Shown one piece after another: positions 50,361-58,694 of a stretch of 64,000 nucleotides of DNA. This stretch comes from Desulfomonilia bacterium (GTDB taxonomy: Bacteria; Desulfobacterota; Desulfomonilia; UBA1062). Every line of letters starts with the position of its first letter. The first letter of the stretch is position 1. Where the stretch lies: the NCBI GenBank assembly GCA_050014195.1, contig JBEKDT010000007.1, forward strand, positions 32,001 to 96,000. The letters are read 5' to 3'. The notes below the pieces were generated by a model, which was not told where the DNA came from, did not search any database, and was given only the letters and a program-made list of their open reading frames with translations. Made by a program: the position numbers and the translations under genes.

Positions 50361-50822
50361 TTATTGTTCTATGATCAAATCATCCCTGATATCTATACAG
50401 CCTATGACGCTTTGAGCTGCAGGACAAAAGGGGAGATAAAGAGAAAAGGCCTCTTTTGCCTCTCCGATCTTCTCCTGAGGCAATCTGAGATGGTAATTCA
50501 CTCTTATCCGAGTAATCTTGAGTATACCATTGACGTTCTCGATATCACCTTCAACATCTGCCCAGAATTTATCTTCGGGGGTGGGGATCTTTTTTCCGGC
50601 CAGCACCGTGGCCAGTGTTCCCATCATTCAGGCAGCTACTGCTGCTACGATATGATCAAGGGTCGCAGCATGTTCCTTTTCAGGTTCAACTTTATAAAAC
50701 TTCTTTATCCCCCCATGAACACCATAATATACAGGCTCATTAAACCCTTCAATGAGTGCTTTTCGGGTGGGGCCTTTTTCCCGAAAAATCTTGATGCGTG
50801 AAGTGTGAACGATCTCTCCCAT
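50361..50822 (-). CDS. OsmC-family selenoprotein (UGA at 50628-50630)
   Basis: Two in-frame ORFs joined by TGA: AAVAA-U-MMGT with downstream FCPAAQS Cys; SECIS-like hairpin at 50596-50615. Confidence 0.85.
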
Positions 50823-50911: not shown

Positions 50912-51904
50912 CTATTTTTCAAGAGCTCCCTGGCAGGATGAACCTGCACCTGCAGTACAGGAAAAGCAGTGATTGCCGATGACGATCTTCCGGTTTCTCA
51001 ATCTTTCAAAATCAAAATTGTTGATATAGTTTGAGGGAGTACATTCAACCGTCAGACCCAGCATCTGGTTAAAGTCACAGTCATACAAGTGCCCATCCCA
51101 TCCTACGGACAGGGTATTCCGGCACATCAGACAATGAATGGTAGAAGGGTTAAAGGATGTATCGAGGGCATGCATGTAATCTTCAAAATTCTCCGACCGT
51201 ATAAGATAGTCGAGATATCTTCCCACTGGGCAGTTGACAAGGCAGTAGAGGGTATTGAAGACTACCCTGTGTTCGCTTTCCAGTCTGGTTTTATATTCAT
51301 GCTCAAGGGCCTGCTGTGTCCCGGGCAGGTAGGTGCCCACGGGATTGTAGACCAGATCCAGGACCAGGCCACTCCCAGGTTTACCATATCCCCGCTCATT
51401 GAGCAGCCGCATCACTTCCAGGATTCGTTTGAAAACACCTTCACCCCTTTGTCTGTTGACCCGTTCTTCATGGTAATCGGGCAGGGAGGCAATGATCTCG
51501 ACTTTGTTATCTGCATAAAGATCAATGAGGTGCTCATAGGGCTCTTCAAGGAGGATCACAAGGTTTGAGCGAACCATCAGCCTGCGATTCAATCCGGCAG
51601 CTTCCTGAATAAACCAGGGAAGCTCCGGATTCATTTCCGGAGCACCACCGGTAATATCTATGGTGCCGATCGGATGATCACGGAGCACCTGAAGGCATTT
51701 CTCGAAAACTTGCCTGTCCATTACCTCTGGCCGGTTAGGCCCGGCCTCAACATGGCAGTGCCTACACGAGAGGTTGCATCTCTTACCAACATTTATCTGG
51801 AGTATGTCGATGGAATTAGCGCAGAGAGGTGAGATAATCCTCTTATGAAACGATATATTCAAAGGATTGTCATTGAGCAGCCTGACCTGTTCAGAAGACG
51901 TCAT
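50912..51904 (-). CDS. ArsS-family radical SAM protein (DUF3641)
   Basis: LQINVGKRCNLSCRHCHV, DITGGAPE, MCR, YDCDFNQML, HCFSCTAGAGSSC. Confidence 0.9.
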   Translation of the reverse strand: MTSSEQVRLLNDNPLNISFHKRIISPLCANSIDILQINVGKRCNLSCRHCHVEAGPNRPEVMDRQVFEKCLQVLRDHPIGTIDITGGAPEMNPELPWFIQEAAGLNRRLMVRSNLVILLEEPYEHLIDLYADNKVEIIASLPDYHEERVNRQRGEGVFKRILEVMRLLNERGYGKPGSGLVLDLVYNPVGTYLPGTQQALEHEYKTRLESEHRVVFNTLYCLVNCPVGRYLDYLIRSENFEDYMHALDTSFNPSTIHCLMCRNTLSVGWDGHLYDCDFNQMLGLTVECTPSNYINNFDFERLRNRKIVIGNHCFSCTAGAGSSCQGALEK

Positions 51905-51905
51905 G

Positions 51906-52241
51906 CTACATTTCCTTCTTCTTGATGACCTTTCTCATCTGGGTGGAATGGGCCAGGACATCACCGGCTGTCATGGCAGCTCCGACATGTACTGCTTCCA
52001 TCATCTCATCGCTGGAAACACCAAGCGAGAGGCACTTATTGGTGTATGCATCAATGCAATACGGACAGTGACGCACAGTCGCCACCGTAAGAGCTATTAA
52101 TGCCTTTTCTCGCTCAGTGAGCACACCGGGTCCTGTTGCCTCGGCGTAATATTCAAAGAAATTTTTACCCTGTTCATGGGCATACTCTGTTATGTTCGGG
52201 AAGTCCGCCAGATCCTTAGGCTCATAGTAGTTATCCGACAT
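51906..52241 (-). CDS. CMD/AhpD-family peroxidase-like protein associated with ArsS-family radical SAM
   Basis: LTEREKALIAL...CPYCIDAY, MMEAVHV. Confidence 0.88.
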   Translation of the reverse strand: MSDNYYEPKDLADFPNITEYAHEQGKNFFEYYAEATGPGVLTEREKALIALTVATVRHCPYCIDAYTNKCLSLGVSSDEMMEAVHVGAAMTAGDVLAHSTQMRKVIKKKEM

Positions 52242-52355
52242 TCATGTTTCCTCCTTAAAGGTATATGTTCCACTGAAAAGCTTCAATATGAGACTATTCA
52301 CCATTCATTATTAACATTATGAAAAGGATCGTTCAATTTATCAGGAAAATGCATT

Positions 52356-53429
52356 TTATTTCTCAAACAGTTTAAGGTACTGGCCGTATCCCTCCTTCTG
52401 CAGGTCTTCCTTGGGGATGAACCGCAAGGCAGCCGAGTTCATGCAATAGCGCAGTCCCGTAGGAGGTGGGCCATCATTGAACACATGCCCAACATGAGAA
52501 TCTGCATGCTTGCTCCTGACCTCTGTCCTTGTAGTGAACAGGGTATTGTCCTGCTTCTCCACGATATTGCCCGGCTCCAGAGGCCGGGTAAAGCTTGGCC
52601 AGCCGGTGCCGGAGTCATACTTATCCTTGGAGCTGAACAGTGGTTCTCCGGAGACGATGTCCACATAGATCCCTTCATGTTTGTTGTTCCAATATGCATT
52701 ATCAAAAGCCGGTTCTGTTCCATCTTTCTGGGTTACCTTGAACTGCATTGGCGTGAGCTTCTTTTTCAGAACCTCTGCACTCGGCTTGGTATACGAACCT
52801 GTTCCGGTCTTACCCGGCACATACTCCCTGTCTTTCCCCCAGACCTCGTCAAGAAACTTGTCACGGCCCGAGTTGAACCGGTAGTACTTATACCGGATCG
52901 GGTTTTTCTTGTAGTAATACTGGTGGTATTCTTCTGCCTTATAGAACGGGCCAGCCTTCACGATCTCTGTGACTATGGGCTTATTAAATCTGCCGGATCT
53001 TGCAAGCCTATCCCTGGACTCCTCGGCGAGCTTCTTCTGCTCATCGTTATGATAGAAGATGGCGCTCCTATACTGGTTTCCCCTGTCCACAAACTGCCCC
53101 CCTGCGTCAGTCGGGTCTATCTGTCTCCAAAACACCTCCAGCAGTTCCGCATACGAGATCTTCGCAGGATCATAAGTTATCTGGATGGATTCTGCATGCC
53201 CTGTTGTCCCGGATGAGTTCTCCTCATAAGTGGGGTTGACAGTATGCCCCCCGGTATATCCAGAGAAAACCTCCTTCACCCCAGGGAGCTTATCAAAGGG
53301 ATGCACCATGCACCAGAAGCATCCCCCGGCAAAGGTGGCCAGTTCATATTTTGTGTTAGCTGCGTTCCCGGTAGATAGTGGTAATACAAGCAGCATGGGT
53401 ATCAATCCTTTCATGATTTTTCTAATCAT
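52356..53429 (-). CDS. msrAB: Exported bifunctional methionine sulfoxide reductase MsrA/MsrB
   Basis: Signal peptide; [18 protein letters not shown] (MsrA); GWPSF, HVF.DGP, RYCMNS (MsrB). Confidence 0.95.
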
Positions 53430-53595
53430 CTTTTATTCCTCCTGAATCATTGGAAACTTGTAGATGTTTATGTAGGGTTGCCTTGTGTAAAAAGAAACCC
53501 ATATCTAACTATCTTTAATTTTCAGCGAACATAAAACTGAGATGACACGACCCGGACATTCATACACCTCATTCCCGGCTTGACAGGAAGGATGC

Positions 53596-53904
53596 TCATG
53601 GATTCGTTCCCAGTGTCTCCTTATATGTTCCTGCCTTCTTCAACGCCTTTTCCATTTCGACGACGGTTACCTTTGCCGGGTCATAGAAAACAGTGTTTAT
53701 TTCTTGAGAACGATAAAATCCTTTTTCGACCCTTGTTACGCCTGGAAGCCTCTCCAAGGCCTCTTTGCCGACGTCATATCAAGCCACAACAAATATAACC
53801 TTTTTCTCTTCATCAGAAGCCTGCGCAGTCCAATGTACCCCGCATAGGAGTAAAAGCAGGAACCCAGCAATGGCAAACTTCCTCATAAGAAAGCCATTAT
53901 TCAT
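53596..53904 (-). CDS. Secreted 102-aa mini-MsrA/HMA-fold selenoprotein candidate (UGA at 53779-53781)
   Basis: GAAAGGAG RBS, signal peptide ending AQA, in-frame TGA at codon 42, SECIS-like hairpin at 53745-53763, ungapped alignment to the neighbouring MsrA active site; absent from ORF track. Confidence 0.8.
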
Positions 53905-54066
53905 TGAGCATGCTCCTTTCGTCTTGGTTTTTGATCTCTCCTAATAAAATTAAGGTTCTTATTTGAATAAACCAGAGAGACTTGAGATGCCCAATAAATA
54001 CCGAAGTCCTACAACGAAACTACTAAGGAAAGGCTTTACCTTGAATATGATTAGGAGTGGTGTTCT

Positions 54067-55146
54067 TTAGAATCCATTATCTCTTTTGAAAAGAGCAAGA
54101 TACCGTCCGTAACCTTCTTTTGTCAGGTCTTCTTTTGGAATAAACAGCAGAGCAGCAGAATTCATGCAGTAACGCAGTCCTGTTGGTGCAGGACCATCCG
54201 TAAAGACATGGCCAAGGTGTGAGTCAGTAAGCTTACTCCTGACCTCCTTCACATCGATTCTCAGCATGTACGAGCTTCTATCCTGCTTCTCTACAATGTT
54301 TCCAGGTTCGAGCGGTTTTGTGAAGCTAGGCCATCCAGTACCGGAGTCATACTTGTCAAGAGAGCTGAATAGAGGCTCACCGGACACTATATCAACATAG
54401 ATCCCATCATGCTCGTTATTCCAGTACTCATTATCGAATGGTGTTTCCGTGCCCTGTTTCTGGGTCACAGCAAATTGCAGGGGTGTGAGTTCCTTTTTCA
54501 GTTCAACTATTGAAGGTTTTTTATAATCCTTATCTGTATATCGTGGGAGCGCAACACTGTTTTTCTCTGTCCATATCTTTTTCAGATAATTATCACGTCC
54601 CGAGTTATAACCAAGGGGATTCTTCTTGAAATAATGCTGATGGTATTCTTCTGCGGGATAGAACTCCGTTGCCTTAGTAATTTCTGTCACAATAGGTCTA
54701 TCAAACCTTCCTGATTCTTTAAGGGCCTGTTTTGACTGCTCGGCAAGCCGCTTTTGATTATCTGTATGATAGAAGATCTCAGTTCGATATTGTGAGCCCC
54801 TGTCAACCATCTGACCGCCACGATCTGTAGGGTCTACTTGCTTCCAGAAGACATCCAGGAGCTGTGGATAGGTAATCTGAGCAGGATCGTATGTGACCTG
54901 GATTGCTTCAGCATGTCCTGTCCTACCGGCTGATACTTCTTCATAGGTTGGGTTTTTAGTATGACCACCGGTGTATCCGGTTATCACTTCAATGACACCT
55001 GGGATATCTTCGAACGCAGCATCCATGCACCAGAAGCAGCCGCCTGCAAATGTAGCTATCTCGTATTTTGTGTCAACCGTATAGCCGGAAGAGACTGGCA
55101 GAATAAAAAGCATTGCTGTCAATCCTATCAATATTTTCCCGATCAT
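54067..55146 (-). CDS. msrAB: Exported bifunctional MsrA/MsrB (paralogue)
   Basis: Signal peptide; [18 protein letters not shown]; GWPSF, RYCMNS. Confidence 0.95.
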
Positions 55147-55544
55147 CGTTTATTCCTCCTGAATCGTAGCTTATTCGTAGAGTTTTATTGTAGGGTTCCT
55201 ATTCTCAAAAAGAAACCCATGCCTTTGCTGGTATAATGAAGACCATACTTGAGTATGTTAAGTTATCCGGTGAAATACATTTCCAGAACAGCCTGTGGAA
55301 AAATGGGGAAGGTGTATCTATAGGTAGATTCAAGAAACACAAAAGCAAATAATCAACCCATGACAGCAATTCCCACGATTAGACTTATTGGAGAATTTTA
55401 TGAGAAGGTATTATCAATGTCTTATAAGCTTCCTATCTTTCACATTCATAAAATTAGAATATTCTAATTTTATTTTAATCATTCTTTAATCAACATATGC
55501 ATATAGGAGAACCATAAATAAATAATTCACAGGAGGATCAACCC

Positions 55545-56623: not shown

Positions 56624-57208
56624 CTATCTGCCGGCGTATAAATCTGAATGAGCTCGATGTTCAAGGTAGTTCTTAATATACCTTTCTGTGAGTGGTTTGT
56701 TGCCCTTGATGATAAGCAAATTCTCGGCATTCTTTTCCTCAGCGGCCTTAGTAAAATTGAACGATCCGGATATGAGAGTATCACGGTCCAAACACATTAT
56801 TTTATTGTGAGCTATGGCGTGGGCTGTGTCTATATAGGTGGTTATCCCAGCATGAGCCATGAAATCTGCAGATGAATACTTTTCACTTCTCTGACTCTTG
56901 TCCAGGATCACCTCTACCTTAACACCTCTCTTGTGGGCATCAAGTAAGGCCTTGGCAATCGGCTTGCTTGTGAAAGAATATGCCTGCACCAGAATTTCTT
57001 TCTTGGCATGATTGATCTCCTGCACTATTGCCTCGGTGCAGCCACCTTTTGGGCTGAAGTAAACATCGGTGGTCCCTACTGATTTGAATTCTTCTGCCTG
57101 AGCCTGGCTTAAAGGCATAATGTAAAAGAACACCAGGAAAAGTAATGAATAGGCGATTAATTTCTGTTGAGTACAAGATTCTGATTTCATCTTTCCGAGC
57201 TTCATCAT
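56624..57208 (-). CDS. Exported PLD-family endonuclease (Nuc-like)
   Basis: Signal peptide; VYFSP.GG, AYSFT, single HNK....D...SGSFNF...A...N.EN. Confidence 0.9.
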   Translation of the reverse strand: MMKLGKMKSESCTQQKLIAYSLLFLVFFYIMPLSQAQAEEFKSVGTTDVYFSPKGGCTEAIVQEINHAKKEILVQAYSFTSKPIAKALLDAHKRGVKVEVILDKSQRSEKYSSADFMAHAGITTYIDTAHAIAHNKIMCLDRDTLISGSFNFTKAAEEKNAENLLIIKGNKPLTERYIKNYLEHRAHSDLYAGR

Positions 57209-57348
57209 CTTAACTTCTCCTTCTATAGTTAAAATTGCTCCAATGGCGCATTATCATTCAAGGGAAAAGTAAAAGTGGGCATAGGGTTGAGGAGGCCGGG
57301 AACCGACAGACTGTAACCTAGAGCCGGCAATCCTTGTAAAGAGCCATG

Positions 57349-57768
57349 TTAAGAGCATTTATTAGATAAATTATCATTGATTTTACATGCGATATTATCA
57401 AGGTTTTTCAGCTCGCACTCCCATACAACCAGAACATTCCAGCCAAGAGATTGTAATTCAGCTTGGTTTTTTGCGTCTCTCTCGATATTTTTTCTTATTT
57501 TATCAATCCAGTATCCGGCGTTTGCTTTTGGGGTTCGCTTTCCTCTTGGGCAGTCATGGCCGTGCCAGAAGCAGCCGTTAACGAAGATCACCTTTTTTCG
57601 GGAGGGGAATACGAGATCCGGTTTGCCTGGGAGATCTTTACGGTGAAGACGGAAACGATACCCAAGTCTGTGCGTTAACGAACGAACCTTCATTTCGGGA
57701 GATGTTCCCTTCCCCCGAATACGACTCATAACCCAACTACGTTTCTCCTTGGAAAAAACATCGGTCAT
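57349..57768 (-). CDS. vsr: Very short patch repair endonuclease
   Basis: RS.VMSRIR, LPGKPDLV, GCFWHGH, VWECE. Confidence 0.93.
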   Translation of the reverse strand: MTDVFSKEKRSWVMSRIRGKGTSPEMKVRSLTHRLGYRFRLHRKDLPGKPDLVFPSRKKVIFVNGCFWHGHDCPRGKRTPKANAGYWIDKIRKNIERDAKNQAELQSLGWNVLVVWECELKNLDNIACKINDNLSNKCS

Positions 57769-58694
57769 TGGGTCAAGTCAATCCGAAGGCCAGGATCGGT
57801 TTCACACTCGTCAATGATGGAGTTGTACTCGGAAATTAGTTGCTCCGCGGTGGTTCGCCTTCCTGCCTGAGCAAATTTACCGATTTCGTACAGGTTACCC
57901 GCAAGGAACTGTTCTGCCTCGAACACATCAACCCTGTCCGCCATATCGGCCTGGTCGGCCAGCCCCTCAGCGAGCAAAGCACCACGATATGTGGTGATGA
58001 TGACGGGTTTCATGCCATTATCCAAATTCCTTCGGCATTTTCGAATCAAAGCCTCGGAGGGAGAAGTGGTGACATGGATTACAACATCTTCAACAATGAA
58101 GTCGCCCTCACGCCCTGAAACGTCATCTGCGACGTTTGCCCCATGATGCTGAAGCGGTGAATCAAGAAGAATGTTCAGTTTCGCCCCGACCAGGTGTTGC
58201 AGCATGGTTCCTACATATGTCGATCCGTTGGCCTGCGCTTGCCGCTTTTCAGCTTGTAATAGTAGATCTCTTATCACCGTCCTTAACGATTTGGAGGCGT
58301 CGAATCTAAGCACAAATGGTTTTCCAGAGAAAAACTCCTTAACACGCTCAATCCACCATGCTTCAACTTGTTCAAAATCAATAGGATTTTCGGAGTGGAG
58401 ATTGTTTAGAAAATTAACGTACTTCCGCATGTTGCCCACGCTGCCTCTGCTGGTGCGCCCACCTTCCTCGGCCAGAACGCGATCAACCCCATGCTCTTTA
58501 AGAATAGACTGAACAGCCGACTTACCTAAACCCATAACCTGTCCGCCACCATCAGTGAGCAATGCTTCCGGGTCAAGCGGCATCCCGATTTTATTGCCAT
58601 GCCGCGTAACGACCAGCGCCACGCAAATAGGCCCTTTGCCCTTCATGCGATTTTTCTGAGCGAATTCCTTCAGCTTTTCATCAATGGACATCAA
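57765..58694 (-). CDS. DUF4928-family protein (putative restriction endonuclease)
   Basis: EGGRTSRGS, LQHLVGAKL, AD....R.GDF....IHVT; lies between MTase and vsr with overlapping stop/start codons. Confidence 0.75.
   Translation of the reverse strand: MMSIDEKLKEFAQKNRMKGKGPICVALVVTRHGNKIGMPLDPEALLTDGGGQVMGLGKSAVQSILKEHGVDRVLAEEGGRTSRGSVGNMRKYVNFLNNLHSENPIDFEQVEAWWIERVKEFFSGKPFVLRFDASKSLRTVIRDLLLQAEKRQAQANGSTYVGTMLQHLVGAKLNILLDSPLQHHGANVADDVSGREGDFIVEDVVIHVTTSPSEALIRKCRRNLDNGMKPVIITTYRGALLAEGLADQADMADRVDVFEAEQFLAGNLYEIGKFAQAGRRTTAEQLISEYNSIIDECETDPGLRIDLTQ

Follow-up and report, generated by a model that had tools for sequence, protein, structure and literature searches.

This work concerns a small gene with an in-frame TGA codon in the genome of a Desulfomonilia bacterium (GTDB lineage Bacteria; Desulfobacterota; Desulfomonilia; UBA1062; GenBank assembly GCA_050014195.1). 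The window analyzed is a whole 64,000-nt stretch of contig JBEKDT010000007.1 (positions 32,001 to 96,000 of the forward strand), and coordinates are positions of this window unless a genome and contig are named. The gene lies on the minus strand between two genes encoding exported bifunctional methionine-sulfoxide reductases (MsrA/MsrB, hereafter MsrAB), and its product is very probably a genuine exported selenoprotein, related both to the N-terminal core of MsrA and to HMA domains. We refer to it and its relatives as the mini protein and the mini family. The features of the locus are collected in Table 1.

Table 1. Features of the mini protein gene and its two immediate neighbors
Feature	Position	Strand	Remarks
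Predicted selenoprotein gene	53596..53904	-	102 codons and TGA stop at 53596-53598; read from the sequence
Shine-Dalgarno-like AAGGAG	53913-53918	-	8 nt before the ATG; read from the sequence
Signal-peptide-like N-terminus MNNGFLMRKFAIAGFLLLLLCGVHWTAQA	53818..53904	-	codons 1-29, hydrophobic, ends in AQA
In-frame UGA, putative selenocysteine	53779..53781	-	codon 42; mature-domain residue 13; aligned to the MsrA catalytic Cys
Selenocysteine insertion sequence (SECIS)-like hairpin	53745..53763	-	7-bp stem GAGGCCU/AGGCUUC, loop UGGAG at 53752-53756
Predicted mature domain, 73 aa, beta-alpha-beta-beta-alpha-beta	53599..53817	-	AlphaFold2 model with structure and profile comparisons
Upstream neighbor, exported bifunctional MsrA/MsrB (PMSR + SelR)	54067..55146	-	hydrophobic N-terminus
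Downstream neighbor, second exported bifunctional MsrA/MsrB	52356..53429	-	

Read directly, the frame opens at an ATG at 53904 and contains a single internal in-frame TGA, at which translation with table 11 splits it into two open reading frames (ORFs) of 41 aa (53779-53904) and 53 aa (53596-53757). An earlier note on this DNA had described a minus-strand frame led by a ribosome-binding site and interrupted by this TGA, a hairpin GAGGCCT-TGGAG-AGGCTTC beginning 15 nt past it, and a mature chain of about 73 residues devoid of further Cys, and the sequence reads exactly so in each of these respects. We infer signal-peptide cleavage after the AQA. A lipoprotein reading of the motif LLLLCG was rejected because Leu at position -1 is not in keeping with a lipobox.

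Relatives were collected through a genome search covering 61 genomes (the host and its relatives) and through pattern scans, which gave 69 loci in species-representative genomes and 80 in metagenomes. The equivalent of codon 42 is readable in 148 loci from Desulfobacterota, Nitrospirota, Syntrophales and other metagenome-assembled genomes (MAGs), locus L090 being cut off. It is TGA in 133 of them, TGT or TGC in 13 and TGG in none; of the two remaining loci, a degenerate copy (L061) has CGA and a broken one (L088) has unrelated sequence. The earlier note had looked to homologues for Cys or a conserved in-frame TGA at this position and had taken Trp or Arg as the contrary sign; in the homologue DNA no Trp codon stands at this position, and the only Arg codon there is that of the degenerate copy. 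The 61 genomes hold five copies, in three genomes that all belong to the host's genus, each with one TGA at the same codon, and the host's own second copy retains the TGA at 86% identity. Beyond the TGA the sequence is under purifying selection: the median ratio of nonsynonymous to synonymous substitution rates (dN/dS) is 0.128, with all 420 of the 946 representative pairs that have a finite dS falling below 0.5. Instead of the loss of conservation past the TGA that the earlier note had regarded as damaging, the family alignment has 15 invariant columns.

Cys is the classical partner residue of Sec (selenocysteine). The Cys forms read V-H-C-Y-D-E-G and have a longer N-terminal region, with His preceding the Cys in 12 of the 13 loci. 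Because Cys and TGA forms co-occur in genomes (loci L026 and L057 come from one MAG, and L028 and L063 from another), the Cys forms look like a paralogous subfamily and not like simple Sec-to-Cys replacements.

Searches of protein databases returned four relatives of near-equal length, of which three carry W at the TGA position and the fourth starts just past it. One W-bearing protein (P0004) differs from the translation of locus L098 by a single residue besides the TGA codon, and the DNA of L098 has TGA. HMMER, run exhaustively against 1.84 billion cluster representatives, yielded 124 proteins with 126 domain matches. In the column of the putative Sec (the U column), 51 matches have C (four of these belong to canonical HMA domains), 26 have W, and V, G, R and S are found once each; the column is empty in 45, most of which begin right after the TGA. 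A search for longer or fused forms gave seven proteins, and no true fusion was found among them: in six the TGA has been translated through as Trp and an unrelated tail follows, and the seventh is a Cys form whose N-terminus is long. The W-bearing database proteins extend beyond the usual end of the family into unrelated tails, which together with the W is what would be expected of short contigs translated with a TGA=Trp table; we accordingly read the W of database homologues as a TGA=Trp mistranslation.

The host carries all four components of the Sec machinery above their cut-offs: selA (525 bits), selB (332 bits, cut-off 242), selD (381 bits) and tRNA-Sec (72.9 bits, cut-off 47), the last with anticodon tca according to ARAGORN. 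An absence of this machinery, which the earlier note had named among the findings that would refute its proposal, is therefore not observed. The host selD gene, outside the window (G000:C2:353599-354516, minus strand), contains one in-frame TGA itself, and its product is by this token predicted to be a Sec-type SelD. Among five other genomes of the family, selB exceeds its cut-off in four.

Folded as a single sequence, the region after the TGA is not exceptional (z -1.14, with 23 of 200 shuffles folding as well). Since the hairpin of the window sequence is no better than chance, the case for it rests on the relatives. Among 45 representatives, 81% of the cells of the 7-pair helix are paired, as against at most 50% after shifting the 3′ partner by 1-3 columns; changes on both sides (compensatory) occur at four of the seven pairs, the observed score is reached by one of 500 shuffles, and RNAalifold independently recovers the same helix. 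The helix overlies a conserved peptide (A-L-E-G-L), so that coding constraint could mimic it, and the Cys forms serve as a control. We compared 101 distinct 63-mers of TGA forms (132 loci) with 10 distinct 63-mers of Cys forms (13 loci). All five core pairs form in 79 of the 101 TGA forms and in none of the 10 Cys forms, the mean minimum free energy being -9.2 kcal/mol in the former and -2.6 kcal/mol in the latter; the Ala codon of the TGA forms is GCC in 97 of 101. Because TGA forms pair and Cys forms do not, the hairpin is tied to the TGA and not to the peptide. The SECIS criteria that follow bSECISearch are a hairpin shortly downstream of the UGA and a G in its apical loop. The hairpin is in keeping with them, starting 15 nt past the UGA in the window and bearing the G-containing loop UGGAR in 87 of the 101 TGA forms. 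Rfam, searched at E <= 10 over positions 53500-54000, gave no SECIS family and one chance-level sRNA match.

On these sequence comparisons rests our high confidence in an exported selenoprotein, and two other accounts of the codon have to be set against them. According to one, the gene is a nonsense pseudogene, the product of a sequencing error, or an ordinary TGA stop between two small unrelated ORFs, as the two table-11 ORFs and the unremarkable stability of the single-sequence hairpin would allow. This account also draws on the Planctomycetota bin1449 chromosome (locus L071), in which selA, selB and tRNA-Sec were not found and which has a TGA form with an intact hairpin, a case that weighs against selenocysteine; the bin might be chimeric, or the copy recently transferred or dead. 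As judged from the comparative data, however, the account already stands contradicted, for the TGA occupies the same codon in 133 of 148 loci across several phyla, the frame and its invariant residues run on across it under the low dN/dS given above, the host's second copy keeps it, and paralogues have Cys in its place; its probability appears minute. The same holds for decoding of the TGA as Trp, through an alternative code or local recoding, which the W of three of the four near-length homologues and of 26 of the 126 domain matches might suggest. Yet TGG occurs at none of the 148 loci, the alternative residue at the codon is Cys, the gene and many of its relatives terminate in TGA, the W-bearing proteins overrun the end of the family into unrelated tails, and the host has long table-11 ORFs together with a full Sec system, all of which makes Trp exceedingly improbable.

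The family alignment comprises 51 members below 80% identity, and their domain aligns without insertions or deletions. Its 15 invariant columns are F9, V11, U13, D15, G17, L21, G26, G33, E39-I-N-T-V43, L59 and T64, and the family motif can be written x-U-[YF]-D-[VE]-G. Export appears to be general, since a hydrophobic N-terminal segment, in line with the secreted product proposed in the earlier note, is present in 49 of 49 representatives with a readable start (one more is cut by a contig end). The AlphaFold2 model built on the family alignment has a predicted local distance difference test score of 93.2 and consists of strands 5-11, 27-35, 38-45 and 65-69 and helices 14-22 and 52-62, with U13 just ahead of helix 1. 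Going by the fold topology, the invariant D15, Glu39 (start of strand 3) and Thr64 (start of strand 4) would lie around the Sec, in what would resemble an acid-base site and not a soft-metal site.

Structural comparison of the model gave matches to both the HMA and the MsrA folds. Foldseek returned MerP (1osd, E 3.6e-4) and CopA/ATP7 HMA domains at the top, with TM-scores of 0.63-0.75 to the HMA entries among its top rows, and placed mouse MsrA at rank 25. VIA-align, which is independent of Foldseek, gave the highest Z to the CopA HMA domain (1opz, Z 9.6, root-mean-square deviation (rmsd) 2.0 A), followed the model from residue 3 to 73 along chain residues 6-99 of the Clostridium oremlandii Sec-MsrA (4lwj, Z 8.7, 69 residues) with the lowest rmsd (1.4 A), and matched four further MsrA entries at Z 6.8-8.0; backbone rmsd to MsrA is 1.4-1.9 A, compared with 1.7-3.6 A for most HMA rows. 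Profile comparison was similarly even. With hhalign, the family matches the neighboring MsrA domains at 95.8% (E 8e-9, 56 columns), with U on the first Cys of GCFWC, and the HMA domains of related genomes at 95.7% (E 1e-8, 45 columns, from helix 1 to helix 2), whereas HMA and MsrA compared directly reach 32.9%. Against PDB sequences the family profile finds MerP best (E 7e-4), and in the hidden Markov model alignment the U column coincides with the second Cys of the CxxC of the canonical HMA rows P0128 and P0130.

These results bear out the placement between the MsrA and HMA folds put forward in the earlier note. The ungapped match of the segment from FVVAUYDVG to VEKGF with the neighboring MsrA, which sets U on the catalytic Cys, was reproduced by profile-profile alignment. 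The substrate loop and the C-terminal half of MsrA are indeed missing, and the position of the Trp holds an invariant Asp. Retention of the catalytic Glu, claimed in the same place, is likely but not proven: both MsrA and the mini family have an invariant Glu exactly seven residues before the invariant Asp of YDP, but a 17-residue gap in the hhalign alignment leaves the two in different columns.

Database profiles fall short of their cut-offs in both directions. Pfam has no match for the window protein; with members scanned singly at E <= 10, PMSR is matched by 21 of 51 (best E 3.9e-4) and HMA by 3 of 51 (best E 0.042), in both cases below cut-off. One Cys-form relative (P0126, CYWTGE...) lies just over the Pfam PMSR cut-off (24.4 against 23.7 bits, profile positions 2-33). 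The best NCBIfam (release 20) match falls in the middle of NF041383 (E 2.7e-8, 33.8 bits, cut-off 275), followed by NF041115, the UxxU metal-binding selenoprotein (E 6.5e-7, 29.4 bits against 95), with MerP (1e-4) and CopZ also below cut-off; the other selenoprotein models of the release gave none at E <= 1. Searches of the host and 14 further genomes of its genus found no canonical HMA domain (PF00403), and several are present in all 16 genomes of a neighboring family (f2). By thresholds and motifs the mini family is a member of neither MsrA nor HMA, and we are confident that its domain is homologous to the MsrA N-terminal core and to HMA domains alike, the predicted Sec taking the place of the MsrA catalytic Cys where helix 1 begins.

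With MsrA (PF01625, including 4lwj, a U16C variant) the mini domain has in common the N-terminal beta-alpha-beta-beta-alpha-beta core, a nucleophile (Sec or Cys) at the start of helix 1 with an aromatic residue behind it, the PGV turn, YDP and an invariant Glu seven residues before its Asp; mature residue 13 would fall on chain residue 16 of 4lwj if the first ten aligned residues are ungapped. It differs in being exported and half the size (73 against about 150 residues), in lacking the loop of ~17-25 residues between strands 2 and 3, the C-terminal half and the recycling Cys, and in having an invariant Asp for the Trp of GCFWG and Phe or Trp for the Tyr of GY; none of the 51 representatives reaches the Pfam PMSR cut-off, as judged from the best E of 3.9e-4. 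Size and topology are those of HMA domains (MerP TIGR02052, 1osd and 1afi; CopZ; the N-terminal domains of CopA/ATP7), and the predicted periplasmic location is that of MerP. Unlike HMA domains, the mini family has no GMxCxxC and a single Sec or Cys, with Val or another residue in the first-Cys column, possesses invariant Asp, Glu, Asn and Thr, occurs outside mer/cop operons and stays below the Pfam HMA cut-off. The NF041115 proteins are likewise small exported HMA-like selenoproteins, but they have two Sec in a UxxU motif (PMC13188914, Table 1), as opposed to one in U-[YF]-D-[VE]-G, and the score is far under their cut-off. In NF041383 (VPGUxxT thioredoxin-like (seleno)protein type 2), the central region (model positions ~141-209) matches the mini domain and also the MsrA domains of the host MsrAB proteins, and so is apparently another MsrA/HMA-like domain; only 67 of 287 model positions are matched, and the mini protein has neither the thioredoxin-like part nor VPGUxxT. 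No full NF041383 members were found in 122 genomes of the host's class, a result of little information as the control genomes gave no match either.

Gene neighborhoods were counted over the 149 loci (window included) or over 50 representatives below 80% identity, with flanks of ~4 kb. In the host, a second msrAB-mini-msrAB cassette lies on the same contig ~67 kb further on, outside the window (G000:C7:151461-154766, locus L020). A scan of 52200-55500 in the window found no terminator-like sites, and promoter-like sites at chance level (7 against 6.0 expected). MsrA/B-like sequence is present in the fetched flanks of 75 of the 149 loci, and among the representatives msrAB lies within 700 nt in 16 of 50 and within ~4 kb in 19. 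A gene for an Oxidored_molyb protein with a twin-arginine translocation (TAT) signal, whose best NCBIfam match is MsrP (below cut-off), is found within 700 nt in 12 and within ~4 kb in 14, and a HAMP/HisKA histidine kinase, usually upstream on the same strand, in 12 and 23, respectively. Locus L157 joins an OmpR-type regulator, the kinase, the mini gene and msrAB in this order on one strand. Rarer neighbors are methionine-rich secreted proteins (17 loci), a YHS-domain (seleno)protein (15), a MerA-like flavoprotein (14) accompanied by a VTT-domain protein (13), and a lactonase-like propeller (12). In 24 aligned MsrAB sequences, all MsrA domains keep GCFWC, and all MsrB domains have Thr in SGTGWPSF at the resolving-Cys position. 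The resolving Cys of MsrB usually stands at this position, and with Thr in its place an outside resolving nucleophile is needed.

On balance, we incline towards a redox role for the mini protein, as a periplasmic Sec module in defense against methionine sulfoxide or oxidants. SelB and tRNA-Sec would insert selenocysteine at the UGA under the direction of the downstream hairpin, and removal of the signal peptide would leave the 73-residue domain in the periplasm, as a redox-active part of a regulon dealing with oxidized methionine and oxidants. There its selenolate could attack an oxidized sulfur center (sulfoxide, sulfenic acid) or an oxidant (HOCl, peroxide), yielding a selenenic acid or selenenylsulfide that thiols would readily reduce; the resolving thiol might come from the CxxC of the neighboring exported MsrA domain or from the one-Cys MsrB, and the action would be catalytic rather than that of a metal carrier. 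This particular scheme, a selenenic-acid cycle with MsrAB as partner, is tentative, and we hold it to be rather doubtful in its details. A periplasmic hypochlorite-scavenging system of Azospira reportedly combines a methionine-rich peptide with an MsrP/YedY-type reductase, and it is not known to include a selenoprotein. Similarly, in some mini neighborhoods an MsrP-like molybdoenzyme and a methionine-rich secreted protein are found together with a regulator of their own; unlike in that system, the regulator here is two-component and thiol-type MsrAB is often present.

A number of observations weigh against the redox role. The family lacks most features of the MsrA substrate pocket: an invariant Asp replaces the Trp behind the Cys, Phe or Trp replaces the Tyr of GY, and the second Tyr and the recycling Cys are absent along with the whole C-terminal half; with the pocket missing, sulfoxide reductase activity is far from assured. 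A two-electron cycle needs more than a single Sec, and among the neighbor clusters of at least five loci none is thioredoxin-like or CcdA/DsbD. Only about a third of the representatives have msrAB within 700 nt, and 15 of the 50 have no neighbor of any labeled family, many of these contigs being short. The similarity to HMA domains, moreover, is as strong as that to MsrA, the best Foldseek and PDB-sequence matches (E 3.6e-4 and 7e-4) are both to MerP, the U column falls on the second Cys of the canonical CxxC, and the YHS-domain and MerA-like/VTT neighbors of some loci fit metal chemistry.

Much of this could be turned into a case for a periplasmic metal- or metalloid-binding selenoprotein, a one-ligand variant of the MerP/CopZ-type HMA domain whose Sec would ligate Cu(I), Hg(II) or another soft metal, perhaps in a dimer, and protect or supply the envelope under metal-linked oxidative stress. 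The fold is the HMA fold, with MerP and CopA heading the structural and PDB-sequence searches and an hhalign match to HMA of 95.7%; NF041115, MerP and CopZ are among the sub-cut-off NCBIfam matches, and some members have been named 'copper chaperone CopZ' by JGI. What makes a metal carrier unlikely in our judgment is that GMxCxxC is absent and that the invariant columns offer, besides the single Sec or Cys, no second Cys, His or Met as ligand, the nearby Asp, Glu, Asn and Thr being presumably better suited to acid-base chemistry. Furthermore, the HMA match in hhalign (columns 17-63) ends short of the U loop, which the MsrA match covers, MsrA superposes with a smaller rmsd than most HMA rows do, and the recurrent neighbors are methionine-sulfoxide reductases and a two-component system, no mer/cop transport gene clusters being present among the neighbor clusters inspected. 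The two-component system invites a further reading, in which the mini protein is its redox-sensing accessory and oxidation of the highly reactive Sec alters binding to the periplasmic domain of the kinase, switching on the msr genes. A kinase does lie in the flanks of 23 of 50 representatives and within 700 nt in 12, mostly upstream and on the same strand, and in L157 the mini gene directly follows the regulator-kinase pair; the host's two cassettes, however, have no adjoining kinase, and a position downstream of a kinase is equally expected of a regulated target, which leaves a sensory accessory quite improbable.

A bolder version of the redox reading would see in the mini family a living intermediate between HMA and MsrA, that is, a free-standing exported 73-residue catalytic core acting in the periplasm of anaerobes as a minimal selenium-dependent reductase of sulfoxides or sulfenic acids, or of HOCl or peroxide, in which selenium offsets the missing pocket and recycling Cys. 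As part of this, the protein might act as a trans-resolving nucleophile for the exported MsrB domains that have no resolving Cys. We consider such an intermediate unlikely. Were it true, MsrA would descend from an HMA-like domain that gained an inserted loop and a longer C-terminal part, and envelope protein repair would have a selenium-based branch that current annotation pipelines do not see.

No family of Pfam or NCBIfam release 20 fits the mini selenoprotein. Table 1 of a 2026 inventory of 119 selenoprotein families (PMC13188914) has no entry with the same motif, size or domain, and the NCBIfam accessions of that table, in effect all covered, gave only the two partial matches, to NF041383 and NF041115. 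The six new selenoprotein families named in the available passages of the Olavius symbiont paper (PMC1976440) do not include it; the Olavius Delta 1 symbiont does carry a TGA form (L060), which may be one of the '15 additional TGA-containing sequences' mentioned there. The new families given in passages of the deep-Sep paper (PMC12013277) are different ones. Full-text searches of the literature found no description of the family, and it appears to be undescribed and uncatalogued in the literature reached.

Gene callers cut the gene at the TGA or, on short contigs, translate it as Trp, so that selenoproteome counts miss a family for which 149 loci were fetched and which has 124 or more protein clusters; the few names on its members read 'copper chaperone CopZ'. 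The bacterial selenoproteome is described as mostly of thioredoxin fold (PMC13188914, section 7), and the mini family would add to it an exported family of another fold. One small domain links the MsrA and HMA superfamilies, at ~96% to each against 33% between them, and its regular neighbors, which are exported MsrAB, MsrP-like enzymes, methionine-rich proteins and a two-component system, point to a selenium-dependent step by which anaerobes living in peat, wetland and sediment may repair oxidative damage to the envelope. Its 73 residues and the existence of natural Cys forms should make the protein easy to express, to solve structurally and to assay.

The surroundings of the cassette in the window show further genes of related kinds. 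Directly downstream of msrAB, at 50912-52241 on the minus strand, lie a homologue of the ArsS-type radical SAM (seleno)protein (TIGR04167, 423 bits, Cys form) and its AhpD-like companion (TIGR04169). They are accompanied by a split gene at 50361-50822, also on the minus strand, whose table-11 ORFs, of 64 and 88 aa, join without a frame change across a TGA at 50628-50630 (VAAVAA-U-MMGTLATV); read through, it gives 153 aa that match Pfam OsmC (E 7.9e-9), and halves homologous to its own also occur near the mini gene in other loci (neighbor clusters 25 and 66). OsmC-like selenoproteins are a listed family (PMC13188914, Table 1), and the three genes together form a run of redox and selenoprotein-family genes. 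Past the other end of the cassette, at 56624-58694 on the minus strand, translations examined by eye resemble a PLD/Nuc-type nuclease, a Vsr-type mismatch endonuclease and a restriction-system protein, which suggests a mobile or restriction-modification patch beside the cassette.

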